From positions 197,620 to 261,619 of the forward strand of contig JBAZTE010000004.1 of NCBI GenBank assembly GCA_041662065.1: a DNA stretch of 64,000 bases, written 5' to 3'. The DNA comes from Bacteroidales bacterium. GTDB taxonomy: Bacteria > Bacteroidota > Bacteroidia > Bacteroidales > UBA12481. The position numbers and the translations under genes are program-made. The notes under the pieces are model-generated. The model searched no databases. It was not told where the DNA came from and saw only the letters and a program-made list of their open reading frames with translations. Of this stretch, positions 16,709 to 38,904 are shown piece by piece (position 1 is the stretch's first letter; each line of letters begins with the position of its first letter).

Positions 16709-16710
16709 CA
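16686..16710 (+). repeat. GC hairpin repeat GGTCCCCGCTTTCGCGGGGATGACA (copy 3)
   Basis: Supplies the last codons (WSPLSRG) and the TGA stop of the ATPase ORF. Confidence 0.7.
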
Positions 16711-16756
16711 GAAAACTTTGTTATATTATTGGTAACTTTGGAGAAAGAAAAAACAA

Positions 16757-17002
16757 ATGGAAGCAATTCACATTGAAATAATTAACCCTAAGGCTAAACG
16801 GATCTTAAAAAGCCTTGAGGAATTAGATCTCATACGAATCAGTAAACCAAAGGATTATGTAAAGGATTTAAAACAACTTCTTGCCAGGTTAAGGTTAAAA
16901 CAAACTGTTAGCTTGTCCTTGGATGAAATCACTGCCGAAGTTGAAGAGTTTAGAGCTGAACGATATGGCGAGAAAAAAAATAGAGCAAACCAAATGCATT
17001 GA
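16757..17002 (+). CDS. small hypothetical protein (81 aa)
   Basis: Clean ORF in an intergenic slot. I recognise no family. Confidence 0.35.
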   Translation: MEAIHIEIINPKAKRILKSLEELDLIRISKPKDYVKDLKQLLARLRLKQTVSLSLDEITAEVEEFRAERYGEKKNRANQMH

Positions 17003-17043
17003 TTATTAAGTGTTTTTGGTTTTAGGCAAGATGAATATCATTC

Positions 17044-18423: not shown

Positions 18424-18618
18424 ACTCTCCTTAATGCCTTCGATTAAATACAAGGGAATTCGTAGAGTTATTCTTGACACTAATTTCTTGACCTTCAGAA
18501 TTGCAGTTTGAATCAGACGCTGTCAACCGACACTTCGACTCCGCTCAGCGTCCGCAACCGGCACCAATGCTCTCTTCAATTAGCATATTATCATATTAGC
18601 TCATTAGCATATTAAAAA

Positions 18619-19152
18619 ATGCTTGATACTCTCGTTACTAGTAAAACCCGCCTTAAGCTTATCCTGAAATTCTTTCTTAATCCATGCAGTTCTGCGTATC
18701 TGCGTGGGTTAGCCGAGGAGTTCGGGGAGAGCAGTAATGCGGTCCGTTTGGAGCTGAACCGTTTCGAAGAAGCGGGGCTCCTGGAGTCGGAGGCCGACGG
18801 TAATAAGAAATTGTACCGCGCTAACCTGAAACATCCGCTGTATAACGACATCCATAGCATCATCCGCAAAACAATCGGGATCGACCAGATTGTCGTTGAG
18901 GTGGTAGCCAAATTGGGTGATGTGGAGGAGGCTTACATAACCGGCGATTTTGCAGTGGGGAAAAATGGAAAGACTGTTGATATCCTATTGATTGGCACGG
19001 AGATACATAAAGATTTTCTGCTTAAACTGATCGATAAAGCCGAAGCACTCATCAAACGCAAAATACGGTACCTGATTCTCACACCTGCCGAAGCAACTGT
19101 CCACCTCGGGAACGGGAACGGGGCCATGTTGATTTGGCGTAGGGACGCCTAA
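18619..19152 (+). CDS. winged-helix (ArsR-like) transcriptional regulator with a C-terminal nucleotidyltransferase-like domain
   Basis: SSAYLRGLAEEFGESSNAVRLELNRFEEAGLL is an HTH pattern. Lies directly upstream of wza-like genes. Confidence 0.55.
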   Translation: MLDTLVTSKTRLKLILKFFLNPCSSAYLRGLAEEFGESSNAVRLELNRFEEAGLLESEADGNKKLYRANLKHPLYNDIHSIIRKTIGIDQIVVEVVAKLGDVEEAYITGDFAVGKNGKTVDILLIGTEIHKDFLLKLIDKAEALIKRKIRYLILTPAEATVHLGNGNGAMLIWRRDA

Positions 19153-19199
19153 TTGCGTCCATAATGGAGCTTGCACAAAAAGGGAATTGGGACAAAAAG

Positions 19200-19290
19200 C
19201 CCCAGCCTGAAGGCTGGGGTTAGTAAACTCTGCCGAAGTTAACCAAGTCAAATCGACAGACTTCACTAACCCCATGGCTTTAGCCTGGGG
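19200..19290. repeat. second copy of the CCCCAGCCTGAAGGCTGGGGTTAGT composite hairpin element
   Basis: 19200-19235 and 19255-19290 are inverted units homologous to 1741-1880. Confidence 0.65.
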
Positions 19291-19340
19291 ATTGCCCCCC
19301 CTGCGAATTAGTTTATAAAAAGAACATAACAACGTTTTAT

Positions 19341-22300
19341 ATGAAATCACACAATCTCAGAATGCCACTTTATTATATTTTGGCATTGGTTGTATCTTTC
19401 CTTTTGGCAGCATCACCCGCTTTAGAGGCTCAAACCGTTTCACCTGCCATGATGCAAATGGTACAAGGAGAATTGAAAAAACGAGGCCTGACTGAAACGG
19501 AGGTACGCACCAGGTTGCTGCAAAAAGGAATTGATCTGGAGAAGGTTCCTCCGGCTGAGTTGCCTCAATATCAGGCGCGGGTAACCGCAGTATTGGATGA
19601 GCTTGAGGCAGAAAAAAAAGCAGGGGCAAAAACGGCTCCTGTACAAACAGCCACAGGTCAGCCCATCAATATTAATGTCGGGAATACCGGCACGGCAACC
19701 GACTCGACAAAAGTTGCTGCGGTTCCGGTGACCACTCCCAAGGAAGCAGCGGCTGAAGCTTCTCAACGTGTCATTCAAGCGGAAGCGGTGAAAAAAGAAG
19801 GACCTTCAACCATTTACGGTCATTCACTATTCACCGACCATTCTCTGGATGTTTTCCGTACCACCGACGGTGCACAGGCTCCTGACACATACGTACTTGG
19901 CGAAGGAGATGAAATCCACATCTCCATTTTCGGAGCTTCTCAAACTGATATTCAGCAACGGATTTCTCCCGATGGATTCATCCAACCTACCGGAGTCGCC
20001 AAAATATTTCTGAAAGGCTTAGCTCTTGCGCAGGCTCGCGAAGTGATCAAGAAAAATTTATCCGCAGCCTATTTATTCAGAGGAGACCAATTAGCCGTCA
20101 CCATCGTAACCGCCAGAACCATCATGGTCAACGTATTTGGGGAAGCCAGAATAACCGGGGGATTTAATCTGTCAGCGCTTAACTCCGCATTTAACGCCTT
20201 GTCGGCTGCAGGAGGTCCAACCGATATTGGGTCAGTCCGTGAAATTCAGTTGATCCGGGGAAATGAGCGGAAGACCATTGATGTTTACGCTTTTATGAAT
20301 GATCCGGCTATACAGTTTAAATTCGATCTTCAGAATAACGACATTCTGTTCGTTCCGATCATCAAAAAGCTGGTCAGTATTGAAGGTGCAGTTAACAGAC
20401 CCATGTCATATGAAATGCTGGCCAGCGAAACGCTGACCGACCTGATTCGATTTGCCGGCGGATTAAAGATGAACGTTTATCCCGATTTCGTGCAAATCCA
20501 ACGGTATGTTAACGGGGAAGAGAAATTGATGGAGTGGAATCTGTCAGAAGTCAGTTCCGGTAAAATTCAGGTACCGCTATTGAATGGAGATGTCATTCGC
20601 ATTAAATCAGTCGGAAAACCCATGGATCAATATGTGGATGTAGAAGGTAGTGTCTACTACCCGGGTCGTTTCGACTTGTTGGCAAATCCAACCCTTAGCA
20701 GCCTGCTCAAAAAAGCCAAACCAACGTATCAGGCTAAAACAGATATCCTGTTTGTTGAACGTACCCGGCCCGATGAAACGGTTGAATTACTGACATTGCC
20801 TTTCCCGGAAACAGAAACCGGGGCAAATGATTTTGTGCTTCAAGCCCGTGATCGCATTCGTATTATGGATCAGGCAACTTATCGCGATGTGTCTACCATC
20901 ATCGTGACCGGACAGGTTCGGCAACCTTTCGAAAAAACCTTTTCACTAACCGATCGCCTTACCGTGAAAGAAGCCATCGAACTGGCCGGCGGTTTAAAAA
21001 ACAGTGCTTATCCAATAGCCTATATATTGAGACGCAACCTGTTCAACCCGGTTGAAATGAAGTACATCCGCATCGAATTAAGTAGTTCTGATGGTTTTCA
21101 GTTACAACCAGGTGACCAACTTAATATTTTCGACAATACCAGTTTTACCGATGTTGGCGAAGTCAGCGTTTTGGGTGCCGTAAGACAGCCGTTTAAAAAG
21201 ACATTTGCCGTTACCGACCGGCTTACTATTAAACAGGCTATCGAGATTGCAGGTGGCGTAAAAGCCACCGTTTACCCTGTTGCCTATATTTTCAGACGTA
21301 ACCTGATCAACCCGGTCGAAGTGAAATACATCCGAATCGATTTGAGCCTGGCTGACAACATGGAACTGCAAGCAGGGGACCAACTGAATATCTATGACAA
21401 TACCACTTACACTAATGTTGGTGAGTTAACGGTATTTGGAGCTGTTAAAAACCCGAATGGTTTTACGTATGATCCTTCAATGACCGTTCGTGATCTCCTG
21501 ACCAATGCCGGTGGATTCAACGTTGGAGCGGCTTTCGATAGGGTAGAGGTCTTCCGCCTCATTTTCTCTACAACAGAGAAGACAAAACTCGAATTGATCA
21601 CCCTGCAGGTGGATTCAAGCTACCAGGTTGTAAGTCCGAAGGATTTTAAACTGCAACCTTATGACCAGGTCATTGTCCGATTGACTCCTGAATTTACCCT
21701 GGGTCGTACCGTTGAACTTTCCGGTCAGGTGAAATACCCCGGCAAGTATGTGTTAGAATCCAAACAAACAACGTTCAGCGATGTCGTTATCATGGCAGGC
21801 GGTTTGCTCGATGATGCCGATCCGTATGGCACCAGGTTGTTTCGTACTTACAACAACCGTGGTAATATCAGCATGAACCTGAGGGCGGCAATGACTCATA
21901 AAGGTAATATCTCTAAAAACCCGATCCTGTTCGAAGGAGATGTAATCAATATCAATCGCCTTGAAAATACCGTATCCATCCTTGAGAACGGTACCCGCAT
22001 GGCACAATATTCGGTTAATCCGGAAAACCATGCGATCAGAAATATCGTTTTTCAGGGACCGAACTCGGCAGCTTGGTACATACGGAATTATGCAGGTGGT
22101 TTTTTGAAGGAAGCCGACCGCAACAGTGTCACCGTAACTCTTCCCAATAATCAAATGGTATCCACCAAGCGGTTTTTATTTTTCAGGGACTATCCTACGG
22201 TGAAATCCGGATCAACGATTACGCTGCAAATGAAACCGCCAAAAGTAGAAACAGCACCGGCAGAAAAAAAGAAAGTTGACTGGGACGCCATCTGGACTAA

Positions 22301-22361
22301 AACTTTAGCATTTTCGACAACCATGGTCACTCTCTTAGTATTATACACACAGCTCAAATAA
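19341..22361 (+). CDS. polysaccharide export outer-membrane protein, Wza-like with multiple SLBB domains (copy 1)
   Basis: 1006 aa with a signal peptide, a Poly_export-like YVLGEGDEIHISIFG, repeated SLBB modules and a C-terminal hydrophobic helix. Confidence 0.85.
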   Translation: MKSHNLRMPLYYILALVVSFLLAASPALEAQTVSPAMMQMVQGELKKRGLTETEVRTRLLQKGIDLEKVPPAELPQYQARVTAVLDELEAEKKAGAKTAPVQTATGQPININVGNTGTATDSTKVAAVPVTTPKEAAAEASQRVIQAEAVKKEGPSTIYGHSLFTDHSLDVFRTTDGAQAPDTYVLGEGDEIHISIFGASQTDIQQRISPDGFIQPTGVAKIFLKGLALAQAREVIKKNLSAAYLFRGDQLAVTIVTARTIMVNVFGEARITGGFNLSALNSAFNALSAAGGPTDIGSVREIQLIRGNERKTIDVYAFMNDPAIQFKFDLQNNDILFVPIIKKLVSIEGAVNRPMSYEMLASETLTDLIRFAGGLKMNVYPDFVQIQRYVNGEEKLMEWNLSEVSSGKIQVPLLNGDVIRIKSVGKPMDQYVDVEGSVYYPGRFDLLANPTLSSLLKKAKPTYQAKTDILFVERTRPDETVELLTLPFPETETGANDFVLQARDRIRIMDQATYRDVSTIIVTGQVRQPFEKTFSLTDRLTVKEAIELAGGLKNSAYPIAYILRRNLFNPVEMKYIRIELSSSDGFQLQPGDQLNIFDNTSFTDVGEVSVLGAVRQPFKKTFAVTDRLTIKQAIEIAGGVKATVYPVAYIFRRNLINPVEVKYIRIDLSLADNMELQAGDQLNIYDNTTYTNVGELTVFGAVKNPNGFTYDPSMTVRDLLTNAGGFNVGAAFDRVEVFRLIFSTTEKTKLELITLQVDSSYQVVSPKDFKLQPYDQVIVRLTPEFTLGRTVELSGQVKYPGKYVLESKQTTFSDVVIMAGGLLDDADPYGTRLFRTYNNRGNISMNLRAAMTHKGNISKNPILFEGDVININRLENTVSILENGTRMAQYSVNPENHAIRNIVFQGPNSAAWYIRNYAGGFLKEADRNSVTVTLPNNQMVSTKRFLFFRDYPTVKSGSTITLQMKPPKVETAPAEKKKVDWDAIWTKTLAFSTTMVTLLVLYTQLK

Positions 22362-22426
22362 TCAGTTGGTCCAATATTTATTCGTGCTAATCTGGGTATA
22401 ATTCTTTATTCTTTAACTTTTATAAA

Positions 22427-23536
22427 ATGACCGAACAACAGATACAACCAGTTATGGAAAACGAGGACGAAATAGACTTGCTTAAACTGGTCAAAACTAT
22501 TTGGAACGGACGTAAAACCCTTTTGATTTCACTTTTTGCCGGAACCATTCTGGGAGTCTTCATAGCAAGGTATTCACCTAAAGAATACACGGCTACGACA
22601 GTCATGGTGCCACAAACTGGCGCCAGAGGTCAGTCTCAACTGGGTGGATTGGCTGCATTGGCAGGTTTGAGCCTTAATAGTGAGCAAAGTTCAGAATTAT
22701 CCCCATTCATTTACCCCACCATTGTAAGGAGCATACCTTTCAAACTTGAATTGATGAATGCTCTAATCAAGTGCAGTGATTTTAAACAACCAGTTTCACT
22801 TTTTGACTATTACAGCAGAAAACGGAAACCGTCGATAATTGGTGCGGTAAAAAAATATACCATCGGACTTCCTGGTGTTATTATCGGTGCTTTCAAAAGA
22901 AAACAAAAGGAATTGGTACTCCCAAATGTTTCATCTAATGACCTCATTCATCTTACCGGAGCTCAAAATGCTGTAAAGAATGCGTTGGATGGAGCTATTT
23001 CATTGGAGATAAGTTCAAAGCAAGGTTTGATTACACTTAATGTTCGAATGGCTGAAGCTTTGGCCGCAGCTCAAGTTGCGCAAATAGCACAAAGTTTGCT
23101 TCAACGTTACATCACCGAATTCAGGATAAAAAAGGCCCAAGCCGACCTTGATTTCATTCAGGAGCGTTACATAGTAGCCAAGGCCGAAGCAGAAAAATAC
23201 CAAGTCAATGTGGCGCTAAATACAGACCGTTCTAAGAATTTTACCAGCAGTTTGCCCCAGGTTGAAAACGCCAGAACCCTAACCTTGTACTCTATTGCCA
23301 GCAGTGTTTTCCAGGATTTGGCAAGACAACTCGAGCAAGCCAAAATTCAGGTTAAAAAAGACACACCCGTGTTTACTATCATTGAACCGGTTAGCATACC
23401 GATTACGACATCCAAACCACAAAAAGTCAAGATAATATCGATCTGGGTATTTTTAGGTGGTATGGTCGGTCTGGGATGGATTTTCGGAAAGCATTATCTT
23501 CCTGGCTTGCGAAAAAAATGGTCAGAAGTTGAATAA
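22427..23536 (+). CDS. Wzz-type chain-length determinant protein without a kinase domain (copy 1)
   Basis: 369 aa with N- and C-terminal TM helices, a coiled-coil middle and a PxxP-like C-terminus (EPVSIPITTSKP). Confidence 0.8.
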   Translation: MTEQQIQPVMENEDEIDLLKLVKTIWNGRKTLLISLFAGTILGVFIARYSPKEYTATTVMVPQTGARGQSQLGGLAALAGLSLNSEQSSELSPFIYPTIVRSIPFKLELMNALIKCSDFKQPVSLFDYYSRKRKPSIIGAVKKYTIGLPGVIIGAFKRKQKELVLPNVSSNDLIHLTGAQNAVKNALDGAISLEISSKQGLITLNVRMAEALAAAQVAQIAQSLLQRYITEFRIKKAQADLDFIQERYIVAKAEAEKYQVNVALNTDRSKNFTSSLPQVENARTLTLYSIASSVFQDLARQLEQAKIQVKKDTPVFTIIEPVSIPITTSKPQKVKIISIWVFLGGMVGLGWIFGKHYLPGLRKKWSEVE

Positions 23537-23573
23537 CTTGCAACTTGCAACCTGCAACCTGCAACCTGCAACA
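23537..23573 (+). repeat. GCAACCN heptamer array (about 5 units)
   Basis: CTTGCAA CTTGCAA CCTGCAA CCTGCAA CCTGCAA starts on the base after the wzz stop. Confidence 0.85.
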
Positions 23574-23581
23574 CTCTTACT

Positions 23582-25936
23582 ATGAAATATAAATACTTCT
23601 TATTAGCCCTCCTTCTCCTTGGAGCGCTCTCTTTCCCGCAATTCTCTCCGGCGCAGGAAATACAGAACGTAAAAGTCTCTGAGCTCACCGATGCCCAGAT
23701 CAAGCAATTGATGTCGGAGGTTTCGAAGCTTGGGATGTCGATGGAGGATGCGGCTGCACTGGCAAAGATGCGGGGTGCAACCGATGCACAGATCAAGGAT
23801 CTGATGGGACGAATTCTGACCATGAATCAGGCAAAGGAGAAAGACAGCACTCTGACGAACAAGGCTCAAGGCTCAAGGCTCAAGAATGAAGATTTAATGA
23901 AGAAAGAGAGGATAGGTAAGAAAGAGAAGAAAGAGGTGGATTCAATCGGAGTTGAGCGGAGGATCTTCGGTTTCGATTTGTTTAATAATGAGAACCTTAC
24001 TTTTGAACCCAGTGTAAACATCCAGACTCCCAAAGAGTATGTCATTGGTATCGGGGATGAGTTCATCATAAACATCTGGGGAGGATCCGAAGCACTTTAC
24101 CAATCAAAGGTGGACAAGAACGGCGCTATTCAGATTCCACAGATCGGGCCGATCTACGTGAACGGATTGTCCTATGAGGTGGCTGAATCCTTGATTCGCA
24201 AACGCCTGGCCAGTATTCACAACGGATTGGCAGGACTCAATCCCAATACTTATGCCATCGTTAATCTCGGTGGTCTTCGAAGTATTCAGATTACCGTGGT
24301 GGGCGATGTCATGACCCCTGGTACCTATACGTTACCGGCAACAGCGTCGCTCTTCAATGCCTTATACCAATCGGGTGGCCCCAATAAAACAGGTTCCTTC
24401 CGGGACATCCGGTTGATTCGAAATGGAAAGATATTGAGACACATAGATATTTACAATTTCCTGGTCAATGCCGATGCAACCGATAATATTCCATTGCGGG
24501 ACCAGGATGTAGTCTTTATTCCCACCTATCAAAAACGGGTCAGTGCCGATGGAGAATTCCTGCGTAATGGACTTTTTGAAATGAAAGGTCAGGAAACGCT
24601 TGGTGACCTGATTCATTTTACAGGCGGATTCACCAATAAAGCATTTCAATTCCAGGTAGCTGTCAATCGCAGAACTTCAACCGAAATGAAATTGCAGGAT
24701 ATCGATCCCGCAAGTTGGGGAAGTTTTGTCATGGAAAACGGGGATTCGGTAAAAGTGGGGAACATTCTGGACCGTTATGCTAACCGGGTTAAGATCGGGG
24801 GAGCCGTATTCCGTCCGGGTACGTTCGAACTGGTGAATGGCATGACGCTTCTTGATTTGATCACTAAAGCCGGAGGACTAAAGGAAGATGCCTACCTCAA
24901 CCGGGGCCAGATTCTCCGGTTAAAGGATAACGGCGATACGTTGTCAGTTGCTTTTGATGTGGCCAGTGTTTCTGCAGGAATTGAAACCGTTCCGTTATTT
25001 CGCGAAGACTCGGTATCCATAAAAACGGGTGTGGAATTGCGCGAAGAATATTATGTTGAAATACAGGGAGAAGTGAATAATCCGGGCGAGAAATCCTATT
25101 ACGATAATATGACGGTTCAGGATTTGGTATACCTGGCAGGAGGGTTTAAGGAGAGCGCCGATGTTAACGTGATCGAAATCGCCAGACGCCTGACTCATGA
25201 TGAAGCTGCTATACTGAGTGATTCGCTGGGTCATGTATTCACCGTCAGCGTACCCAGAGATTTAAAACCCGGGACCGATGATTCCAGATTTATTCTACGA
25301 CCATTTGATCTCGTATCGGTTAGAAAGGCTCAGGGTTACAGGGATCAGGGAAGTGTTGCTGTATCGGGTGAAGTACTCTATGCCGGTTATTATTCAATAA
25401 AGAGCAGGCAAAACCGGATCAGCGACCTGATCAAATGGTCAGGTGGACTGACCCCCGATGCCTATGTGGATGCAGCCAGACTATATAAAACAGATTCGAT
25501 TCCGGTTGGGATTGACCTTAAAAAGATATTGATTGATCACGGCAGCCGGCTGAATATGATTCTGGATCCAGGGGATTCCCTGTATATTCCCAAACAGCCG
25601 CAAATAGTCAATATCGTTGGTCAGGTACAAAAACCCTTTGCAAATACCTTTATTCCGAATAAGGGAGTCAAGTATTATGTTAAAAATGCAGGGGGATGGG
25701 CAGAATCTCCGGCTAAAAGAAGCATTTACGTGACCTATCCGGACGGGAGTTCCGACAACACCCGGACTTTTATCGTCCATCGTTATCCTCCGATCAAGCC
25801 AGGAAGTACAATCGTCATACCAAAAGAACCCGTAAAACCTCCTAAACCCGACAGAACAGCCGTCTGGCTGGCACTGGCCAGTACCATGTCTTCTATTGCA
25901 CTGACACTGGTGACGATATTGAATTTGACGAAGTAG
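23582..25936 (+). CDS. polysaccharide export protein, Wza-like with SLBB domains (copy 2)
   Basis: 784 aa with a signal peptide, YVIGIGDEFIINIWG, SLBB modules and a C-terminal helix. Confidence 0.85.
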   Translation: MKYKYFLLALLLLGALSFPQFSPAQEIQNVKVSELTDAQIKQLMSEVSKLGMSMEDAAALAKMRGATDAQIKDLMGRILTMNQAKEKDSTLTNKAQGSRLKNEDLMKKERIGKKEKKEVDSIGVERRIFGFDLFNNENLTFEPSVNIQTPKEYVIGIGDEFIINIWGGSEALYQSKVDKNGAIQIPQIGPIYVNGLSYEVAESLIRKRLASIHNGLAGLNPNTYAIVNLGGLRSIQITVVGDVMTPGTYTLPATASLFNALYQSGGPNKTGSFRDIRLIRNGKILRHIDIYNFLVNADATDNIPLRDQDVVFIPTYQKRVSADGEFLRNGLFEMKGQETLGDLIHFTGGFTNKAFQFQVAVNRRTSTEMKLQDIDPASWGSFVMENGDSVKVGNILDRYANRVKIGGAVFRPGTFELVNGMTLLDLITKAGGLKEDAYLNRGQILRLKDNGDTLSVAFDVASVSAGIETVPLFREDSVSIKTGVELREEYYVEIQGEVNNPGEKSYYDNMTVQDLVYLAGGFKESADVNVIEIARRLTHDEAAILSDSLGHVFTVSVPRDLKPGTDDSRFILRPFDLVSVRKAQGYRDQGSVAVSGEVLYAGYYSIKSRQNRISDLIKWSGGLTPDAYVDAARLYKTDSIPVGIDLKKILIDHGSRLNMILDPGDSLYIPKQPQIVNIVGQVQKPFANTFIPNKGVKYYVKNAGGWAESPAKRSIYVTYPDGSSDNTRTFIVHRYPPIKPGSTIVIPKEPVKPPKPDRTAVWLALASTMSSIALTLVTILNLTK
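23860..23884 (+). repeat. heptamer array (CAAGGCT)x3.5 inside wza copy 2
   Basis: CAAGGCTCAAGGCTCAAGGCTCAAG is read as (K)AQGSRLK. Confidence 0.8.
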
Positions 25937-25952
25937 GGAAGAGGGGGAGGAT

Positions 25953-26036
25953 GCGGGTTGCTGGTTGCTGGTTGCTGGTTGCTGGTTGCTGGTTGCAAGT
26001 TGCTGGTTGCAAGTTGCGGGTTGCTGGTTGTGGGTT
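25953..26036 (-). repeat. GCAACCN heptamer array, complement orientation (about 12 units)
   Basis: GCGGGTTGCTGGTTGCTGG...GTTGTGGGTT. Ends at the stop codon of the four-helix-bundle gene. Confidence 0.9.
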
Positions 26037-26400
26037 AGGTACGCCAGTTGTCTTCGACGTATTGGATGAAGTTATTTATTTGCTTACCAAGACCTTCATA
26101 TTCTGATATTAACTCATCAATTGGGTGTTGTTCAAAATGCAGAATATTTATCAAGTCCAACTGCGACATGGATTCATCACATGACGCTTGGGCAAAAATG
26201 AGATATCTTATAAATTCCATTTTGTACCGTCTCCGACCATAACCTTCGGCGATATTATCCTTAATGCTTTTAGATGATCTCCGAACCTGACTCCCCTGCT
26301 CATACATTTCATATTTAGGTAATGTCATGGTCATATGATGAACACGAATGGCCAGATTAAAAGCCTTTTGGTAAATCTCCAAATCTCTAAAACTTTTCAT
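26035..26400 (-). CDS. four-helix-bundle protein (23S rRNA intervening-sequence protein family)
   Basis: MKSFRDLEIYQKAFNLAIRVHHMT..LPKYEMYEQGSQVRRSSKSIKDNIAEGYGRR is the family signature. The ORF-track N-terminal extension to 26505 only translates the repeat array. Confidence 0.85.
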   Translation of the reverse strand: MKSFRDLEIYQKAFNLAIRVHHMTMTLPKYEMYEQGSQVRRSSKSIKDNIAEGYGRRRYKMEFIRYLIFAQASCDESMSQLDLINILHFEQHPIDELISEYEGLGKQINNFIQYVEDNWRT

Positions 26401-26413
26401 AGTATCTATTTTT

Positions 26414-26458
26414 AACCTGCAACCAGCAACCAGCAACCAGCAACCCGCAACCAGCAAC
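26414..26458 (+). repeat. GCAACCN heptamer array (about 6.5 units)
   Basis: AACCTGCAACCAGCAACCAGCAACCAGCAACCCGCAACCAGCAAC, inverted relative to 25953-26036. Confidence 0.9.
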
Positions 26459-26486
26459 AATATATAGACGCTAAATCCTGCCTCCA

Positions 26487-27569
26487 ATGGAAAAATCCCC
26501 ACCAAATCAAATCGACCTTTTCTCGATAGCCAAAACCTTGTGGCAGGGTCGGAAAACGGTCTTGTTATGGGTTATGATTGTTGTGATTGTTGGTTTGGTA
26601 ATTGCATTCTCCAGCCCCCGCGTTTACACAGCACGGACTGTTATGGTGCCGCAGGTGCAGTCGAAGAGTTCGGGCCTGGGGAGCCTGGGGAGTTTGGGAG
26701 GATTAGCGGCGATGGCCGGGATAAATCTGAGTAATCTGAATGCAGGCACAGAGGATATTTCACCGTTGGTGTATCCTGAGATTGTAAGAAGTTATTCGTT
26801 CCAGAAAGAAATTATGTATACACCACTCACCTGGAGATCGGTTGGTATGCCGGTCAGTTTGGTTGAGTATGTGCAGAAGTATCAGAGAATCGGATTATTT
26901 GGCAAGGTCAAGAAGGCCATTTTCAGGCTGCCGCGGACGGTTAAATCATGGTTTGCCAGGGAAGAAAGACCGATGGTTGCCGCTGCCGGTGATTCTTTAA
27001 CCCGGATCAGCGAAAACGAACAGGAATTGTGGGATGACATGTCTGAATCCCTGACCTTAAGCGTGGATAAGAAGAATGGTTTTATCACACTCACGGCATT
27101 GGGCCCCGAACCTCTGGTGACGGCCCAAATTGCCGATAAGGCAATGAACCTGCTGCAATCGAGGATCACGGAATTCCGCATCGAAAAGGCCCGGGAGAAC
27201 CTGAATTTCATACAGGGACGTTTCGATGACAAGAAAAAGGAATTTCAATCCACCCAGGATCGTCTGGCCCGCTTCCGCGACGGAAACCAGGGCATGAACT
27301 CCAACCGGGTGAAAACCGAGGAGGACCGTTTGCAAAGTGAATACCAGCTGGCATTCACGGTTTATTCGGAATTGGCAAAACAACTCGAGAGCGCTAAAAT
27401 TTCAGTAAAGGAGGACACCCCCGTTTTTTCAATCATCGAATCGGTTATTGTTCCGGTTAATCCTTCGAAGCCCAGGAAACTGGTGATTCTTATGTTTAGC
27501 TTCCTTTTGGGTGGTTTTTTAGGTATTGGTTTCCTGTTTGCCAAACAGCATTGGAACGAAGCAACCTGA
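26487..27569 (+). CDS. Wzz-type chain-length determinant protein (copy 2)
   Basis: 360 aa, colinear with 22427-23536 (..RKT.L......G...A..SP..YTA.TVMVPQ.. and ..ITEFRI.KA...L.FIQ.R..). Roughly one-third identical by eye. Confidence 0.8.
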   Translation: MEKSPPNQIDLFSIAKTLWQGRKTVLLWVMIVVIVGLVIAFSSPRVYTARTVMVPQVQSKSSGLGSLGSLGGLAAMAGINLSNLNAGTEDISPLVYPEIVRSYSFQKEIMYTPLTWRSVGMPVSLVEYVQKYQRIGLFGKVKKAIFRLPRTVKSWFAREERPMVAAAGDSLTRISENEQELWDDMSESLTLSVDKKNGFITLTALGPEPLVTAQIADKAMNLLQSRITEFRIEKARENLNFIQGRFDDKKKEFQSTQDRLARFRDGNQGMNSNRVKTEEDRLQSEYQLAFTVYSELAKQLESAKISVKEDTPVFSIIESVIVPVNPSKPRKLVILMFSFLLGGFLGIGFLFAKQHWNEAT

Positions 27570-27573
27570 CGTG

Positions 27574-28833
27574 ATGAGTCAATTCCGTTCAGGCATTGTT
27601 GGAAAGATTCGCCGGCATGGGGGTATTATCCAGAATTTTTCCTACCTGTCTGTCATCCAGCTGGTTAATCTCCTGGTAACCCTGGCAACCTATCCTTTTC
27701 TAATCCGGGTGCTCGGAAAGGAAGTGTTCGGATTGGTGGTGTACGCGCAGGCGATCATAACCTATCTGGTTGTACTCATCAGTTTCGGATTCCAGATCAG
27801 TGCAACACGGGAAGTTTCCATTCACCGGAATGATCCACGGAAGCTTAATGAGATATTCAGCAGTGTTCTGATTTTAAAGGGTTTATTATTCCTCGCTTCC
27901 GTTGGCCTGTTATTCCTGATAACCTTATTCATCCCGCAGGCCCGTGAACATAAGGTTCTTTTCCTTCTGAGCATGTTTACCTGCTTTTATGAGTTTATCT
28001 TTCCTTTCTGGTTTTTCCAGGGGATCGAAAAGATGGGTTATCTGACCCTCATAACCCTCATAACCAAACTAACTTTCTTTATCCTGATATTCCTGTTCAT
28101 CCGCAGCAAAAAAGACTATCTGCTGGTACCCCTGTTTAATGGGATCGGGTCGGTTCTTGCCGGTGTTATTTCCATCTGGATTGCGGTGGTCCGTGAAAAA
28201 GTCCGTTTCAGTTTCCAGCCATTCCATCGTCTTTGGCACTACTTTCGGGAAAGCAGCGCCCTCTTTGTTTCGAATTTCGCCAATCAGGTTTATGTAAATG
28301 CCAATAAAGTAATCGTAGGACTTTCATTGGGTATGGGAGAGGTCGCCCTGTATGATCTGGCAGAAAAGATCGTCCTGGCCATGAAAATCCCTCAAAACAT
28401 GTTGAATCAGGCGATTTTCCCAAAAATAATCAAGGAGCGCAATGTGGCATTTTCGAAAAAAATTCTCCTGTATTCCATGGTTGGCCAGGCAGCTTTTTTC
28501 TTTCTTATAGTCTTAACGTCTTCGGTCTTAGTTCTTCTTCTCGGTGGCAGGGAAATGTCGCAATCTACCGGTTTGTTACGCCTGTTGGCCTTAACCGTTC
28601 CCGTTAATGCAATCAGCAGCTTCCTTGGAATCCAGTTCCTTGTGGCGCATGGATTTAAAAGACTCTATACGAGGGTCATCGTTTTGTCGGTCGTGTTGTA
28701 TGCTTTGATGTGCACCGGGTTATGGGTAAATGGTTCAATAAGCCTGATTTCGGTTATCCTGGCTACCATCGCGACTGAAGTATTTGGTTTGGTTGCGATG
28801 ATGGTTATGGTGGGGAGGAGGAGGTTGGGGTGA
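27574..28833 (+). CDS. wzx: Wzx-type oligosaccharide flippase (copy 1)
   Basis: About 420 aa with 12 or more hydrophobic helices. N-terminal NFSYLSVIQLVNLLVTLATYPFLIRVLG is typical of the polysaccharide-biosynthesis (Wzx) family. Confidence 0.8.
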   Translation: MSQFRSGIVGKIRRHGGIIQNFSYLSVIQLVNLLVTLATYPFLIRVLGKEVFGLVVYAQAIITYLVVLISFGFQISATREVSIHRNDPRKLNEIFSSVLILKGLLFLASVGLLFLITLFIPQAREHKVLFLLSMFTCFYEFIFPFWFFQGIEKMGYLTLITLITKLTFFILIFLFIRSKKDYLLVPLFNGIGSVLAGVISIWIAVVREKVRFSFQPFHRLWHYFRESSALFVSNFANQVYVNANKVIVGLSLGMGEVALYDLAEKIVLAMKIPQNMLNQAIFPKIIKERNVAFSKKILLYSMVGQAAFFFLIVLTSSVLVLLLGGREMSQSTGLLRLLALTVPVNAISSFLGIQFLVAHGFKRLYTRVIVLSVVLYALMCTGLWVNGSISLISVILATIATEVFGLVAMMVMVGRRRLG

Positions 28834-28836
28834 AGT

Positions 28837-28890
28837 GGGTTGCGGGTTGCAAGTTGCTGGTTGCAAGTTGCTGGTTGCTGGTTGCTGGTT
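28837..28890 (-). repeat. GCAACCN heptamer array, complement orientation (about 8 units)
   Basis: GGGTTGCGGGTTGCAAGTTGCTGGTTGCAAGTTGCTGGTTGCTGGTTGCTGGTT, starting 4 nt after the wzx stop. Confidence 0.9.
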
Positions 28891-28940
28891 AGACAAGGCA
28901 TTCAGTGGGATAATTTGTGAAATAATTCAGGTCATTTTTT

Positions 28941-30269
28941 GTGTCAATTAGTGGAAGTAATTCTGTCCGTTGGCTGAAGAATGTCAACCCTGCAGAATGG
29001 GTTGATTTCCTGCTGATCAGCTATTTGTATTGGGTGGCGTTCGAGTGGACCATTCTTTCGAGGTTGGGGAATTACGGACTGATACAGGTGATCAGGAATA
29101 CGGTTGATCTGATTCCGATTGTCCTTTTACTGATCAGTATCATTGTTCTGAATCCAAAATTCAAAAGCCCTGAACTCAGGATATTCTCCGGTTTCGCCTT
29201 AATCATCATACTTTCGGCGATATCCTTGATTCTTGAGAGTACTGGGATCGCTCCTGTAACCGGCTATATCGGTGTTACAGTAAGATTTGTTCCGCTCATT
29301 GTTCTGGTCAGGTATACCAGCGTTGATTTTCAGCGGAAGTTGTTTAGTCAGGTAAGGATCATTTACTGGCTGCTCGCTGGACTCGGCCTGCTGAGTTTGT
29401 TCGGCAAAGATTGGTTCAACGGTCTTTTCCTGCCTTCGGTGGATGTTTTCGGTGAGGTAGTACCCACCACCTACAAGGATCCGGGAATAGGTGCCACGTT
29501 TATCAATACCGTAGAATTTGCCTTCTTTCTTCTCGGTCTTACGATTATCTATCTGGAGGGATCGCAATCAAAAAGGGAAAAGCTCTTTGTCAGCCTTCTG
29601 TCTTTTGTCTTATGTCTTTTGTCTTTCTCCATAGCTTCTGTCTTAGGTCTTTTTCTCATCTTCTTCCTCCGCAGTACCCGGAAAGTACTGGTAGCCACGG
29701 TTTTTACCGGATTGCTCATCATCGCTTTCCTGTTTTTCAATGGTTTTATCGTCCAGCTGCTCGGGATGGATATAAAATACTGGATTGAAATCTCGTCCGA
29801 GTTCAACCGGTTGGGCTACCTGACAAAAGTGTTCCCGGAGTTTTTGCACGGAGGCTTCAAGGATCTGTTCCTGGGAATGGGTTATGATGCCGGAGTGGTT
29901 GACCTGAAGTTGGCCAACTACCACAACACTCCGTTCGTGATGATCAACAACGAGAATAACCTGAAGTACCTGAAAGATGTATATTGGCTATCCATCCTGA
30001 TCGTCCAGGGATTCATCGCGTTCATTACCACTTTCTATATCCTGGTATCCGTTTGGATGGGCGCCGGGCGTGAAGGATCCGAAGCAAACTACCGGGCAGT
30101 AAAAATTTTTATTCTTTTGGCTTTATTCCTGGGGATGTTTAACCAGATTCTGGATATGAAAGCTTTTTCCTTTTGTTTCTGGCTGATGGCCGGAATGGCA
30201 CTGAATAAACCGGCTATTCTGACAGAGATATCGTTTGTTAAAACCCGTTTGTCGGGTGAAACCGCATGA
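28941..30269 (+). CDS. O-antigen polymerase/ligase-like (Wzy-type) polytopic membrane protein
   Basis: 442 aa with about 11 TM helices and a larger loop. Located between wzx and glycosyltransferases. GTG start. Confidence 0.55.
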   Translation: MSISGSNSVRWLKNVNPAEWVDFLLISYLYWVAFEWTILSRLGNYGLIQVIRNTVDLIPIVLLLISIIVLNPKFKSPELRIFSGFALIIILSAISLILESTGIAPVTGYIGVTVRFVPLIVLVRYTSVDFQRKLFSQVRIIYWLLAGLGLLSLFGKDWFNGLFLPSVDVFGEVVPTTYKDPGIGATFINTVEFAFFLLGLTIIYLEGSQSKREKLFVSLLSFVLCLLSFSIASVLGLFLIFFLRSTRKVLVATVFTGLLIIAFLFFNGFIVQLLGMDIKYWIEISSEFNRLGYLTKVFPEFLHGGFKDLFLGMGYDAGVVDLKLANYHNTPFVMINNENNLKYLKDVYWLSILIVQGFIAFITTFYILVSVWMGAGREGSEANYRAVKIFILLALFLGMFNQILDMKAFSFCFWLMAGMALNKPAILTEISFVKTRLSGETA

Positions 30270-31624
30270 AGAGACTGAAAGTACTGGTTTCAGCCCATGA
30301 ATTATCGCCATACCAGGGCTCCGAATGTGCAGTCGGGTGGAACCTGGTTACCCGGATAGCCCGTTATCACGACGTTACAGTTCTGTATGCGCGTGGCAGC
30401 CAGTTTTTCCCGGATGCTTACGAAACGGCCATCAGGAATTATTATACAGAGAACAAAAACGAGTTTAACATAAAATTTATTGCAGTTCCGCAACCCGATA
30501 CCACACTCTGGCTGGCAGCGATAAACAAGCGGATATCCAGGAACAGCTCCAGTATCGGCGTACCGTTTCTCTACTTCATCGGTTACCGGCTGTGGCAAAA
30601 AAGCGCCTACCGCATGGCCAAAACACAGGAACCATTTGACATCATCCATCATTTAACGTCCGTAACATTCAGAGAACCGGGTTATTTGTGGAGATTGCCA
30701 GTGCCCTTCGTATGGGGTCCAACGGGTGGAACCACAAATATTCCTATTCGTTTTTATCCGTTTATTGGGATCCGTGCTGCCAGTCATGAAGCTTTCCGTG
30801 CGATAACCAACCGACTGACACTTTGGTTCAGTTACAAGATTAGCCGGGCGATGAAAAAAAGCTCGCTGATCTACGCTTTTTCAGCGGAGGATCAGGCCTT
30901 GTTTCAAAGGAGGATGGTGAAGAGGGTGGAGGTGATGCTGGAGACCGGATGCGGGGAGGATGATGCAAGTTCCAATCAACCAGCAACCAGCAACCAGCAA
31001 CCTGCAACTTCCAATCATCTCCGCGTCCTCTGGTGCGGACGGTTGGTCAACTCTAAAGCGCTGGATATTTTACTTAAGGCCCTGGCAGGAGATCAGGATT
31101 TGATGAATCGGGTAAAGCTCACTATTGTGGGCGACGGTCCTTTGCGCAGTAAGTATGAAAAGCTGATCAAAAAGCTCTTCCCTCCAACCTGTAACCCGCA
31201 ACCTGCAACAAATATCTCTTTCACCGGCTGGCTCCCAAGGGATCAGGTAGTCCGCTGCATGAGGCAATCCGATGTGCTGGTCCATACCAGTTATCGGGAG
31301 GGTACCTCACACGTGATCCTTGAGGCACTATCTGCCGGCTTACCGGTAATCTGTCACGACATCAGTGGCATTTCCATCGCTGTGACCGGGGAATGCGGAA
31401 TCAAGGTTCCTTTAGTATCCTATAAAAAGAGCGTTCTCGGTTTCCGCGACGCGATTAGGGTTGCTAGTTGCAAGTTGCAAGATGCAAGTTGCTCCACACA
31501 AACTGCAACCGGCAACCTGCAACCTGCAACAAATCTCCGCTCGGGTGCCCTGAACAGGGCAAAAGAACTCTCCTGGGACTCGCTGGCCGAACGCATCTCC
31601 ACCGCTTATAATGATCTGCAATGA
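30266..31624 (+). CDS. GT4-family glycosyltransferase carrying three in-frame heptamer arrays
   Basis: GT-B layout. C-terminal domain ..VLWCGRLVNSKALDILLKAL.., ..SYREGTSHVILEALSAGLPVICHD.. (E-x7-E region). Confidence 0.8.
   Translation: MKRLKVLVSAHELSPYQGSECAVGWNLVTRIARYHDVTVLYARGSQFFPDAYETAIRNYYTENKNEFNIKFIAVPQPDTTLWLAAINKRISRNSSSIGVPFLYFIGYRLWQKSAYRMAKTQEPFDIIHHLTSVTFREPGYLWRLPVPFVWGPTGGTTNIPIRFYPFIGIRAASHEAFRAITNRLTLWFSYKISRAMKKSSLIYAFSAEDQALFQRRMVKRVEVMLETGCGEDDASSNQPATSNQQPATSNHLRVLWCGRLVNSKALDILLKALAGDQDLMNRVKLTIVGDGPLRSKYEKLIKKLFPPTCNPQPATNISFTGWLPRDQVVRCMRQSDVLVHTSYREGTSHVILEALSAGLPVICHDISGISIAVTGECGIKVPLVSYKKSVLGFRDAIRVASCKLQDASCSTQTATGNLQPATNLRSGALNRAKELSWDSLAERISTAYNDLQ
30969..31016 (+). 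repeat. GCAACCN array flanked by the 9-nt direct repeat TTCCAATCA, inside GT4 gene 1
   Basis: TTCCAATCA at 30969-30977 and 31008-31016. The 30 nt between is ACCAGCAACCAGCAACCAGCAACCTGCAAC. One repeat copy plus the array is 39 nt. Confidence 0.8.
31184..31210 (+). repeat. short GCAACCN array inside GT4 gene 1
   Basis: CCAACCTGTAACCCGCAACCTGCAACA is read as PTCNPQPAT. Confidence 0.7.
31458..31531. repeat. inverted pair of heptamer arrays (potential hairpin) inside GT4 gene 1
   Basis: GGGTTGCTAGTTGCAAGTTGCAAGATGCAAGTTGC (31458-31493) faces CTGCAACCGGCAACCTGCAACCTGCAACA (31503-31531). Read as VASCKLQDASCSTQTATGNLQPAT. Confidence 0.75.
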
Positions 31625-32871
31625 AGGTTCTCCTCATTAACAGGAATGACTTTGTGGATGGGGGAGCGGACCGGGTGTTTCTGAATACGTTTGATTTGTT
31701 GCAGGTTGCAGGTTGCGGGTTGCAGGTTGAGAAGTTTACAAGGGAAGATGTCGGGATGGAGACAATAGTTGATCCCCGCTCCTTATCAGTCTGGAAAAAG
31801 TTGCTGCATGTCAGAGACTATCTGTATAACCGTCGGGTGGCAGGTTGTCTGGATCGCAAAATCCAGGTGTTTCGTCCGGATGTGGCACATGTGCACCTGT
31901 TTTACGGGACCCTGTCAACCTCCATTTTAAAGGTTCTAAAAAAGAAAAAAGTACCGGTTGTCCTTACCGTACATGATTACCGGTTGCTTTGTCCGGCAAA
32001 TGCCATGCTCGACCGCCACGGACACATCTGTGAAAAGTGCTATAGAACAAAATATTATCAGTGTTTTATTAAACGGTGCTCCGGGGGAAATCTGTTTTTC
32101 AGCACAGTGATCATGCTGGAAGCCTACCTGAGAAAATGGATGTATAAACCAATAAAATTGATCGATCGCTTTATTTTCGTCAGTGATTTTAGCCGCAACA
32201 AGCATATTGAATTCGATCCGCGGTATATGGCAAAATCCATCCGGCTCTACAACATGGCCGACGAAAAACCTGGTATAATTCCAATAAAGGGTGACTATCT
32301 CCTCTTCTATGGAAGAATATCAAAGGAAAAAGGCCTGTTAACCCTGATCGAAGCAGTTAAAAACATTCAAGTAAAACTGATCATCGCCGGCCGCGGCCCT
32401 CAGGAAGAGGAAATAAAAAGACTGATAGACTATAAGACTATAAGACCCGCAACCAACAACCCGCAACCCGCAACCCGCAACCAGCAACCCGCAACCAGCA
32501 CCATCGACTTTGCCGGCTTCCTCTCAGGCAGCGAACTCGGGCAATTGATCCTTGGCTGCTCATTCGTGGTAGTTCCCTCGGAATGGTATGAAAACAATCC
32601 CATGACGGTGGTTGAGGCCTTCGCGCTGGGCAAGCCGGTCATCGGATCGCGGATCGGGGGGATACCCGAATTGGTAACTTCTGAAACCGGTTTTTTATTC
32701 GAACCCGGTAATCCTCTCTCACTGGCGGAGGCAATTGAAAAAGCTGTCAATCTATCCACAGAAAAATATAAAATGATGAGTGTTTCCTGCCGCGAATTTG
32801 CCAACATGAACTTTGACCGCAGGAAACATCTGGAACAACTTACCGGGATTTACCAACAAGTTGTGAATTGA
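31621..32871 (+). CDS. GT4-family glycosyltransferase carrying two in-frame heptamer arrays
   Basis: GGADRVF.., YGRISKEKG, PSEWYENNPMTVVEAFALGKPVIGSRIGGIPELV (E-x7-E). Confidence 0.85.
   Translation: MKVLLINRNDFVDGGADRVFLNTFDLLQVAGCGLQVEKFTREDVGMETIVDPRSLSVWKKLLHVRDYLYNRRVAGCLDRKIQVFRPDVAHVHLFYGTLSTSILKVLKKKKVPVVLTVHDYRLLCPANAMLDRHGHICEKCYRTKYYQCFIKRCSGGNLFFSTVIMLEAYLRKWMYKPIKLIDRFIFVSDFSRNKHIEFDPRYMAKSIRLYNMADEKPGIIPIKGDYLLFYGRISKEKGLLTLIEAVKNIQVKLIIAGRGPQEEEIKRLIDYKTIRPATNNPQPATRNQQPATSTIDFAGFLSGSELGQLILGCSFVVVPSEWYENNPMTVVEAFALGKPVIGSRIGGIPELVTSETGFLFEPGNPLSLAEAIEKAVNLSTEKYKMMSVSCREFANMNFDRRKHLEQLTGIYQQVVN
31696..31729 (-). repeat. GCAACCN array (complement orientation) inside GT4 gene 2
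   Basis: GTTGCAGGTTGCAGGTTGCGGGTTGCAGGTTG is read as LQVAGCGLQVE. Confidence 0.8.
32446..32502 (+). repeat. GCAACCN array (about 8 units) inside GT4 gene 2, preceded by a GACTATAA x2 octamer repeat
   Basis: CCGCAACCAACAACCCGCAACCCGCAACCCGCAACCAGCAACCCGCAACCAGCACC is read as RPATNNPQPATRNQQPATST. Confidence 0.85.
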
Positions 32872-32873
32872 CC

Positions 32874-33566
32874 ATGAAGCGCCTGATCAACACTATTGTC
32901 CGTAAGCTCGGAAGATCCGGCTACCGGTTGGATGACCATATCTCTTCTTACAGTCTTCTGGTCTTATTAGTCTCAAAGTCTTGCCAGCTGGTCCGGGGTT
33001 TGTGCCTCAAGGCTACGCTGAAAAAATCATCCGGACTGCTCTTTGTGGGCAGAAGATGCCGGATCAGGTACCGACACCTGATCACAACCGGAAAAACGCT
33101 GACTCTGGGTGATTATGTTGAAATCAATGCCCTCTCAAAAGCGGGGGTTCACCTGGGCGACAATGTGTCCATACTGAAAGGAACAATCATAGAATGTACC
33201 GGGGTCATGCGTAACCTGGGTGAAGGACTGACGATCGGGAACAATGTTGGGATCGCGCAGAACGGTTTTATCCAGGTCAGGGGGAAGGTGGTGATCGGCG
33301 ACAACGTCATTTTCGGACCGAATGTTTCCGTTTTCTCGGAGAATCACGTATTTGACAATCCGGATATCCCGGTTTCCATTCAGGGGGAGACCCGAAAAGG
33401 AGTCACCATTGAGGAAGGTGCCTGGATCGGCACCCGTGCTGTGATCCTCGACGGCGTAACGGTAGGCAGGAACAGCATTGTGGCCGCCGGGAGTATAGTC
33501 ACACGCGACGTGCCTGCATACACCGTGGTGGGCGGAGTGCCGGCGAAAGTACTTAGAAGCAGATAG
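32874..33566 (+). CDS. left-handed beta-helix (hexapeptide-repeat) O-acetyltransferase
   Basis: Hexapeptide repeats GDNV.I..G..I.., IGNNVGI, IGDNVIFGPNV, IGTRAVILDGVTVG, with C-terminal VGGVPAKV. Confidence 0.8.
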   Translation: MKRLINTIVRKLGRSGYRLDDHISSYSLLVLLVSKSCQLVRGLCLKATLKKSSGLLFVGRRCRIRYRHLITTGKTLTLGDYVEINALSKAGVHLGDNVSILKGTIIECTGVMRNLGEGLTIGNNVGIAQNGFIQVRGKVVIGDNVIFGPNVSVFSENHVFDNPDIPVSIQGETRKGVTIEEGAWIGTRAVILDGVTVGRNSIVAAGSIVTRDVPAYTVVGGVPAKVLRSR

Positions 33567-33614
33567 TTGCTAGTTGCTAGTTGCTAGTTCAACCAGCAAC
33601 CAGCAACCCGCAAC
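33567..33614. terminator. imperfect hairpin formed by (GTTGCTA)x3 facing (CAACCAG/C)x3.5
   Basis: Starts on the base after the TAG stop. The arms pair with about one mismatch per heptad. There is no T-tract, so terminator function is uncertain. Confidence 0.45.
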
Positions 33615-33637
33615 AAAAAGACCTCTAACACACTATC

Positions 33638-34531: not shown

Positions 34532-34536
34532 GGACG

Positions 34537-37315: not shown

Positions 37316-37460
37316 AGGTTGCGATTGTTATGATGGTTGTGATTGTTATGATAGTTATGATGGTTATGATGGTATGACCCAACCACAACAACCACAACAA
37401 CCATAACCACCATAACAACCATAACCACCATAACAACCATAACCACCACAACAACCACAA
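37316..37460. repeat. roughly 145-nt imperfect hairpin built from opposed 9-mer arrays (GTTATGATG-like / CAACCATAA-like)
   Basis: Left arm of about 7 units (37316-37378), right arm of about 9 units (37380-37460). Starts right after the TAG stop and ends 9 nt before the next GTG start. Confidence 0.8.
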
Positions 37461-38900: not shown

Positions 38901-38904
38901 TCTG

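Follow-up and report, generated by a model that had tools for sequence, protein, structure and literature searches.

We analysed a 64,000-nucleotide (nt) stretch of a Bacteroidales genome (assembly GCA_041662065.1, contig JBAZTE010000004.1), here called the window and numbered from its first letter, in which a short reverse-oriented gene lies between two inverted arrays of a tandem heptamer. An earlier note made from the letters alone (the original prediction) described a minus-strand gene for a four-helix-bundle protein of 121 amino acids (aa), assigned it to the 23S rRNA intervening sequence family, and placed it between inverted heptamer arrays within a wza-wzz pair. Profile searches (PF05635, TIGR02436) and a repeat scan confirmed the gene and its arrays, and the flanking genes encode a Wza-like protein and a Wzz protein. 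Two further statements also held. The gene is the only minus-strand one in the polysaccharide stretch: every gene with Pfam support between 8.1 and 64 kb lies on the plus strand, and the minus-strand open reading frames (ORFs) there overlap plus-strand genes. In addition, a Pfam scan detected no reverse transcriptase or recombinase among the 56 main ORFs of the window. The cassette and its immediate neighbours are as follows.

23582-25936, plus strand: wza-2, Wza-like polysaccharide export protein of 784 aa, the upstream neighbour (Pfam Poly_export and SLBB domains)
25937-25951, plus strand: G-rich spacer after the wza-2 stop, outside the cassette and forming its left boundary; a similar spacer is present in the gene-less relative L218
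25952-26036, no strand assigned: left arm, GGTTGCN repeated about 12 times when read on the plus strand (Tandem Repeats Finder, direct reading)
26035-26400, minus strand: four-helix-bundle protein gene, 121 aa, PF05635/TIGR02436 ("S23p" family), from profiles, fold, and dN/dS
26401-26413, minus strand: 13-nt spacer from the upstream arm to the ATG (direct reading)
26414-26458, no strand assigned: right arm, GCAACCN repeated about 6.4 times when read on the plus strand, which in the gene's sense is upstream NGGTTGC (Tandem Repeats Finder)
26459-26486, plus strand: conserved wzz-2 leader (AATATATAGACGC...), outside the cassette and forming its right boundary; the motif is also found ahead of wzz in L082, L083, and the gene-less L218
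26487-27569, plus strand: wzz-2, Wzz chain-length determinant of 360 aa, the downstream neighbour (Pfam Wzz and GNVR domains)

The gene begins with an ATG at 26400 and ends with a TAA at 26035-26037, according to the ORF listing and direct reading. Tandem Repeats Finder placed the left array at 25952-26030 (period 7, 11.3 copies, 86% matches) and the right array at 26414-26458 (period 7, 6.4 copies, 92% matches). The two arrays are reverse complements of each other; by direct reading, the left one enters the stop codon of the gene and the right one begins 13 nt from the ATG. When 25940-26470 was folded as RNA, both strands gave a terminal stem of ~44 bp enclosing the ORF, with fold energies of -170.7 and -180.0 kcal/mol (z = -6.0 and -6.7 compared to shuffles), and in both folds the right arm is predicted to pair with the left. 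The window cassette thus has terminal inverted repeats that form a long stem around an ORF, one of the marks of an rRNA intervening sequence (IVS). A search with Rfam found only two tRNAs in the window, with no rRNA and nothing at the cassette, and PADLOC returned no match that would annotate the cassette as anti-phage defence.

The 121-aa protein has PF05635 (23S_rRNA_IVP) as its sole Pfam match (E=1.2e-26, 93.4 bits vs a cutoff of 33.8) and also matches TIGR02436, "four helix bundle protein" (E=5e-29, 100.7 bits vs a cutoff of 24). An AlphaFold model of the monomer, made with 22 homologs, has four helices (pLDDT 88.6), and a Foldseek comparison gave 2gsc (Xcc0516) and 2rld (BT_0352) as the closest solved structures, with TM scores of 0.74-0.77. 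The original prediction had likened the fold to that of Avd, a protein of diversity-generating retroelements (DGRs). This resemblance is real (8ub7 and 4dwl, TM 0.62-0.77) but distant, with only 7-10% identity, and 2gsc and 2rld, neither of which is a DGR protein, match better. More than 2900 homologs of the protein were found, many of them 62-88% identical to it. A homopentameric ring is among the hallmarks of the family. A family motif of the type GxxRxxxSxxxNxxE has been described (PMC3936711), and a motif of this kind is present at residues Q38-V-R-R-S-S-K-S-I-K-D-N-I-A-E-G53, within which Q38, R40, R41, K44, K47, D48, E52, and G53 are invariant in the homolog alignment. Compared to orthologs in loci L082 and L083, the gene has a dN/dS of 0.035-0.044 with a saturated dS of ~2, while the dN/dS of wza is higher (0.071); the four-helix-bundle protein is under strong purifying selection. 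Since synonymous sites are saturated between these orthologs, the persistence of arrays at both ends of the gene implies that the arrays are maintained as well.

Arrays of the cassette heptamer (GCAACCN or its complement) are common in this part of the window. There are 14 between 23.5 and 39.9 kb, where all intergenic gaps of more than 20 nt hold a tandem-array element, and heptamer arrays also occur in frame within four coding sequences. Flanking arrays would therefore be unremarkable in the window alone, and their significance rests on other genomes. A profile made from the homolog alignment was scanned over one genome per species (GTDB representatives), a set that does not include the source genome and in which the best match is 72% identical. 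This yielded 80 loci spanning Bacteroidales, Prolixibacteraceae, Draconibacterium, Flavobacteriales, Cytophagales, Balneolales, Chlorobiota, and Melioribacteraceae.

Across these loci, the gene and the arrays occur together with a fixed polarity. Read in the gene's sense, period-7 arrays of AACNNGN were counted 45 times within 150 nt past the gene (3.77 per kb), compared to 5 times in the remaining 531 kb (0.01 per kb). Reverse-complement arrays numbered 27 in the 300 nt upstream (1.15 per kb vs 0.01 per kb elsewhere) and 0 downstream. The local enrichment is ~400-fold just after the stop codon and, for the reverse-complement type, ~100-fold upstream. A motif-agnostic scan detected a period-7, -14, or -21 array downstream in 69 of the 80 loci and upstream in 55, at median offsets of 6 nt past the last conserved codon and 34 nt before the ATG. 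Array-flanking of other family members, which the original prediction had offered as a way to check it, was therefore found in other genomes. The unit profile over the 80 loci is A (.84), A (.75), C (.86), N, N, G (.65), N. Read in the gene's sense, the window arrays follow this rule exactly; the left arm becomes a downstream AACCNGC array that agrees with it in position and polarity. The variable unit positions also co-vary between the two arms of a locus (0.31 vs 0.12 expected), a value exceeded in 0 of 2000 shuffles. In the window both arms are AACCAGC, and in the orthologous loci L082 and L083 both are AACCTGC.

Some loci carry more than a single pair of arms. A complete hairpin (reverse then forward array) lies upstream of the gene in L012, L019, L042, L046, and L091, in addition to a downstream forward array, and in L078 (5050-5900) several consecutive hairpins flank the gene on both sides. 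Such extra hairpins indicate that the cassette can be compound. Among adjacent inverted pairs of the GCAACC type, counted in metagenome loci L097-L216 and the window, 11 had the order GGTTGC...GCAACC and 0 had the order GCAACC...GGTTGC.

The association extends beyond this subfamily. Nine divergent paralogs within the regions of the 80 loci each lie between inverted arrays of ~7-nt period built from other units, including GGTGAAC/GTTCACC, AATAGTG/..TCAC.., GGTATAT/ATATACC, and TTGATAA/TTATCAA. A plasmid protein search gave mostly cyanobacterial matches, from which ten regions were fetched, one of them an rRNA copy. Periodic arrays flank the gene in 8 of these 10 plasmid or rRNA regions and are clearly inverted in most of the 8, with GGGTGTR/YACACCC in Calothrix and Nostoc, AAGGGAA/TTCCCTT in Geminocystis, GGTTTAA/AAACCTT in Riemerella, and 8-mers in Picosynechococcus. 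The Azospirillum copy (L096) is a genuine 23S rRNA IVS, with an Rfam large-subunit (LSU) match at 292-3354 around an ORF at 1501-1854, and its arms (GAGGACG GATGACA... / ...CCGTCCT CTGTCTT) are also 7-nt periodic. The sequence of the repeat unit follows the protein subfamily. Of the 186 GGGAATC arrays dispersed in Xanthomonas campestris, one overlaps the start of XCC0516 (PMC4692102, supplementary file 2). XCC0516 is the crystallised family member 2gsc, and the overlap drew no comment from the authors of that study. Taken together, the array-gene association has a fixed geometry and spans at least five phyla, from Bacteroidota to Cyanobacteria and Proteobacteria.

The contexts in which the cassette is found are diverse. 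Neighbour pairs include NuoF-like/GltD-like, frr/smc, RNase Y/DegT, purU/redoxin, glmM/aminotransferase, cysN/epimerase, and lolE/lolD, as well as lepA; plasmid contexts include cas6/cas4 and cmr2/cmr3, and family genes were noted earlier in cas loci (PMC3936711). The gene and its arrays occur together in at least 12 unrelated operon contexts, which indicates that the cassette moves as a unit on evolutionary time scales. In 68 of the 80 loci the gene is co-directional with both neighbours, so the reverse orientation in the window is unusual for the family; antisense placement of this kind was found at only two of the 80 (hutU/hutI and ROK/AraC). The usual co-directional position in housekeeping operons such as lolE-lolD and NuoF-like/GltD-like means that the arrays cannot be strong terminators, and a terminator function was rejected on this ground. 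None of the 80 loci showed wza/wzz synteny. A recurring upstream neighbour of ~780 aa was considered as a candidate Wza and rejected, as the protein is NuoF-like.

Closer relatives do share the wza-wzz site. The three closest homologs (88%, 82%, and 79% identity) are all antisense between wza and wzz, as in the window, with shorter arrays; across species, the downstream array has 12 units in the window vs 4-5, and the upstream array 6.4 vs 4.5-8. In four other relatives (Wzz 85%, 83%, 73%, and 71% identical), wza is directly followed by wzz and the four-helix-bundle gene is absent. The wza-wzz gaps of these gene-less relatives are 143-388 nt long and contain other tandem-array hairpins. In L218, inverted 9-mer arrays lie between boundaries shared with the window, a spacer rich in G that follows the wza stop and ATATATAGACGC ahead of wzz. 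In L219 (3357-3500), the gene-less hairpin consists of GTGACRA heptamers, and the GTGA/TCAC core of this unit flanks a different four-helix-bundle subfamily in L002b, L014a, and L034b. In a relative with an empty wza-wzz site (contig of P0127), the gene list shows a PF05635 gene in antisense orientation at a more upstream position, ahead of a 180-aa gene and wza. The PF05635 family thus recurs at different positions in these polysaccharide loci; site occupancy varies among relatives, and orientation does not. The original prediction had proposed that the cassette may be mobile or invertible and that empty wza-wzz sites should be sought. Such sites exist in four relatives and, together with the range of contexts, uphold mobility on evolutionary time scales. 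Invertibility fared poorly, as a single orientation was found in all assemblies that span the cassette (see below) and no recombinase is encoded in the window.

With moderate confidence, we interpret the segment as a widespread and conserved type of cassette, an S23p-family gene between inverted ~7-nt arrays that is of IVS type and located outside rRNA. By analogy with rRNA IVSs, a transcript crossing the cassette on either strand would fold its two arms into a long double-stranded stem, which may then be processed by RNase III. Processing of the stem would release the message of the gene and split the operon transcript so that wza-2 and wzz-2 are no longer coupled, and the cassette may have spread as a selfish or semi-domesticated unit. 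[quoted passage not shown]

Several observations weigh against this interpretation. Neither a transposase nor a recombinase is encoded in the cassette. Aligned in the best register, the two arms of a locus share only ~77% identity across the set of 80, and the differences between them show no G·U-compatible excess on either strand (87 vs 78) and are mostly transversions, so selection for RNA pairing leaves no positive signature here. Long-range duplex energies, compared by strand as a guide to whether selection acts on RNA, split 38 vs 37 loci with control duplexes nearly as stable, and weigh neither way. A simple stem accounts neither for arms made of tandem 7-mers nor for the fixed A-A-C and G with other positions drifting. 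The retention of A-A-C..G across phyla, in a form specific to the subfamily, looks more like sequence-specific recognition than pure stem formation. Finally, in an array-centred metagenome sample, the gene lay within 700 nt of only 3 of 57 GCAACCN arrays. Most GCAACCN arrays are therefore solo, and an array does not imply a gene, although a gene largely implies an array.

A possible explanation, which we put forward tentatively and which can coexist with stem processing, is that the four-helix-bundle protein is a cognate partner of the repeat, in the manner of REPIN-RAYT systems. The protein would bind its own heptamer and perhaps promote its maintenance or spread; the arrays around the gene would be the "home" copy, and solo arrays and gene-less hairpins would be targets or non-autonomous derivatives. 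This agrees with the tracking of protein subfamily by unit sequence and with the conservation of A-A-C-N-N-G-N across phyla despite synonymous saturation between close orthologs. It also agrees with the solo arrays of the cassette heptamer family that fill the locus, and with L009, where the rare unit AACCGGC occurs both next to the gene and in nearby gene-less hairpins. Further points in its favour are the dispersed GGGAATC array at the start of XCC0516 (2gsc) in Xanthomonas campestris (PMC4692102 supplement) and the related Avd, which binds nucleic acid in an RNA-protein complex (PDB 8ub7). However, the protein lacks a known catalytic motif, the middle positions of the unit vary among the arrays of the window, and simple co-inheritance of gene and arms could produce the same correlation. 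The scarcity of genes near sampled GCAACCN arrays (5%) fits a home copy with dispersed derivatives without demonstrating it.

A generalization of this idea, equally tentative, is that S23p proteins may be the missing trans-acting partners of dispersed STRR-like heptamers in Cyanobacteria, Bacteroidota, Xanthomonas, and others. Recognition would be specific, one heptamer per subfamily, with array-gene-array as the autonomous form and solo arrays, gene-less hairpins, and ORF-less rRNA IVSs as derivatives or targets. Such a system would be comparable to REPIN-RAYT, but based on a putative non-enzymatic nucleic-acid-binding ring. The sequence comparisons allow a repeat-protein partnership without proving it.

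We regard it as unlikely that the hairpin is instead an intercistronic RNA-processing or stability element of the host, with the gene a lodger inserted in a pre-existing loop. Gene-less relatives do have other array hairpins at the exact wza-wzz position (the 9-mers of L218 and the GTGACRA heptamers of L219), gene-less hairpins occupy other gaps in the window, and rRNA IVSs are known to replace the tetraloops of helices (PMC4990558). Independent target hairpins would not be expected to follow protein subfamily over at least 12 contexts and several phyla, yet the units do.

Recombination between the inverted arrays could in principle flip the gene and gate read-through from wza-2 into wzz-2, as the repeats are long enough for homologous recombination and the orientation is opposite to the family norm (68 of 80 co-directional), which makes one past inversion plausible. 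As a present-day switch, this is very improbable. The comparisons of orientation and repeat length rest on consensus assemblies. Metagenome contig L001, from the same strain, matches window positions 16023-27967 except for one 12-nt unit in another gene and has the cassette in the same orientation. An independent short-read contig of that strain, L221, matches 26420-36120 exactly with both of its ends within arrays; it ends inside the right-hand cassette array, as expected for repeats, and is silent on inversion. The antisense orientation is common to the window, L082, the P0004 contigs (several samples), and the P0006 contig, at 79-88% protein identity, and the 64-kb window has no recombinase. 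As far as consensus assemblies show, the antisense cassette is fixed in this lineage and is not a switch.

The same assemblies bear on phase variation, in which slippage of the heptamer would alter spacing or frame and thereby switch expression of the gene or of those next to it. In its favour, the unit length of seven is not divisible by three, and copy number differs between species. However, between them L001 and L221 include every window array except two, and all those included are identical to the window's; the arrays of the P0004 ortholog are likewise identical in four samples. No repeat-length or orientation polymorphism was detected at arrays between the assemblies compared. The heterogeneous units would also damp slippage, and none of the three genes concerned has an array in its coding sequence, making this explanation highly improbable. 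The sole length polymorphism observed between assemblies is the 12-nt coding repeat (ATGTCGGTAAAG) at 18185-18233, in a Schlafen/AlbA_2-HATPase_c_4 gene, which has 4 copies in the window and 3 in L001. Chance juxtaposition or a DGR remnant, suggested by the arrays in every gap of this part of the window and by the Avd-like fold, is barely credible given the 100- to 400-fold enrichment in 80 independent loci, which rules out chance, and the closer match to the non-DGR structures 2gsc and 2rld in a 64-kb window with no reverse transcriptase.

Beyond the cassette, the middle positions of the heptamer unit vary among the arrays of the window. Representative elements of the cassette heptamer family, none with an assigned strand, are listed below.

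23535-23572: solo array in the wzz-1/wza-2 gap (repeat scan)
28838-28890: solo array in the GGTTGCN orientation, in the gap between a flippase gene and the next gene (repeat scan)
31460-31530: adjacent inverted pair, in frame inside a glycosyltransferase coding sequence (repeat scan and fold)
33564-33614: adjacent inverted pair without a gene, an intergenic "empty" hairpin (fold -24.2 kcal/mol, z = -6.3)

The arrays in coding sequences lie at 30977-31008, 31181-31209, 31460-31530, 31698-31729, 32445-32500, 36068-36153, and 39771-39874, in genes for two GT4 glycosyltransferases, an SDR epimerase, and a GT2 glycosyltransferase. The heptamer unit is free of stop codons in six frames, and the in-frame arrays encode stretches such as QPATSNQQPATSN or VAGCKLQ. 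The array of the epimerase corresponds to a 17-residue insertion relative to 6kv9. Two of the glycosyltransferases were compared with their counterparts in L082 (~70% identical proteins); the arrays are at matching positions and differ in length in frame, two of them by 7 residues (three units).

Other repeat families also form hairpins in the window. A 9-mer inverted pair (GATGGTTAT / CAACCATAA) at 37317-37461, in a sugar-transferase/flippase gap, gives a hairpin of -46.7 kcal/mol (z = -6.6), and the same 9-mer family fills the wza-wzz gap of L218 (2840-3190). A hairpin of a different heptamer (TGCCTTC / CAAGGCA) at 10454-10515, between rhamnose isomerase and rhamnosidase-like genes, has an energy of -44.9 kcal/mol (z = -8.3). 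The arrays of 23500-40000 are confined to the Wzx/Wzy-type part of the locus (GC 46-49%), and none are present in the following ABC-transporter (Wzm/Wzt) part at 41000-64000 (GC 37-44%); separate origins are possible for the two parts. A NusG-family (UpxY-like) gene at 12618-13181 precedes the polysaccharide genes and hints that the long plus-strand operon, interrupted by the antisense cassette, is transcribed with processive antitermination. The two tRNA genes of the window are in tandem on the minus strand (1966-2049 and 2072-2155) and form a 106-nt direct repeat that is 81% identical.

The role of S23p proteins in rRNA IVSs, and as multi-copy genes in operons including cas operons, has been a puzzle for ~30 years, as have the hundreds of tandem heptamer repeats in some phyla. 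Because S23p genes and heptamer repeats are physically coupled, these two puzzles become one question about cognate binding and hairpin processing. In these terms, the rRNA "intervening sequence" would be one habitat of a general cassette that colonises intergenic sites in operons. At the window locus, this makes the odd antisense gene a fixed passenger cassette and not an on/off switch for a capsule.

We found no paper that links S23p or four-helix-bundle proteins to heptamer repeats; the literature search was incomplete, and an earlier description is possible. Long heptamer repeats themselves are well documented, with TAACTGA in Beggiatoaceae, Cyanobacteria, and Bacteroidetes, GGGAATC in Xanthomonas, and STRR sequences in cyanobacteria (PMC4679880; PMC4692102). 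They are mostly intergenic, between co-directional genes, at most ~50 nt from start or stop codons, often in convergent pairs, and transcribed (PMC4679880; PMC4692102). The text of these two papers does not mention the S23p family, nor does the supplement of the TAACTGA-repeat paper. Like STRR-type repeats, the window arrays are tandem 7-nt units in intergenic positions near start and stop codons. Unlike the arrays in those studies, they have a fixed polarity around an S23p-family gene and also occur in frame within coding sequences.

REP and REPIN sequences are short repeats that flank a RAYT gene in inverted orientation and are also dispersed, and such logic identified RAYT transposases as their partners. 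The cassette gene is similarly flanked by inverted short repeats that are also dispersed as solo or hairpin copies between operon genes, and the repeat class is specific to the protein subfamily. Unlike RAYT, an HUH/Y1 tyrosine transposase similar to IS200/IS605, the cassette protein is a 121-aa helical bundle with PF05635 as its only match, and unlike REPs, which are imperfect palindromes of 20-40 nt, the cassette repeats are tandem 7-mers. The cassette protein shares its four-helix-bundle fold and broad superfamily with Avd of DGRs but differs in the low identity, the better match to 2gsc and 2rld, and the lack of a reverse transcriptase in the window.

The S23p IVSs of 23S rRNA (Leptospira, Coxiella, Brucella, and Azospirillum L096) share the protein family with the cassette. 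They are also similar to it in size (about 0.43-0.5 kb) and in having the ORF in the loop of a long terminal-inverted-repeat stem, and the arms of L096 are 7-nt periodic. As a class, such IVSs are inserted in helix 9, 25, or 45 of 23S rRNA and excised by RNase III without re-ligation, whereas the cassette lies between protein-coding genes, antisense to them, and its arms are overt tandem heptamer arrays. S23p intervening sequences were already known; what appears to be new here is an IVS-type S23p cassette that lies outside rRNA and is built of tandem heptamers.

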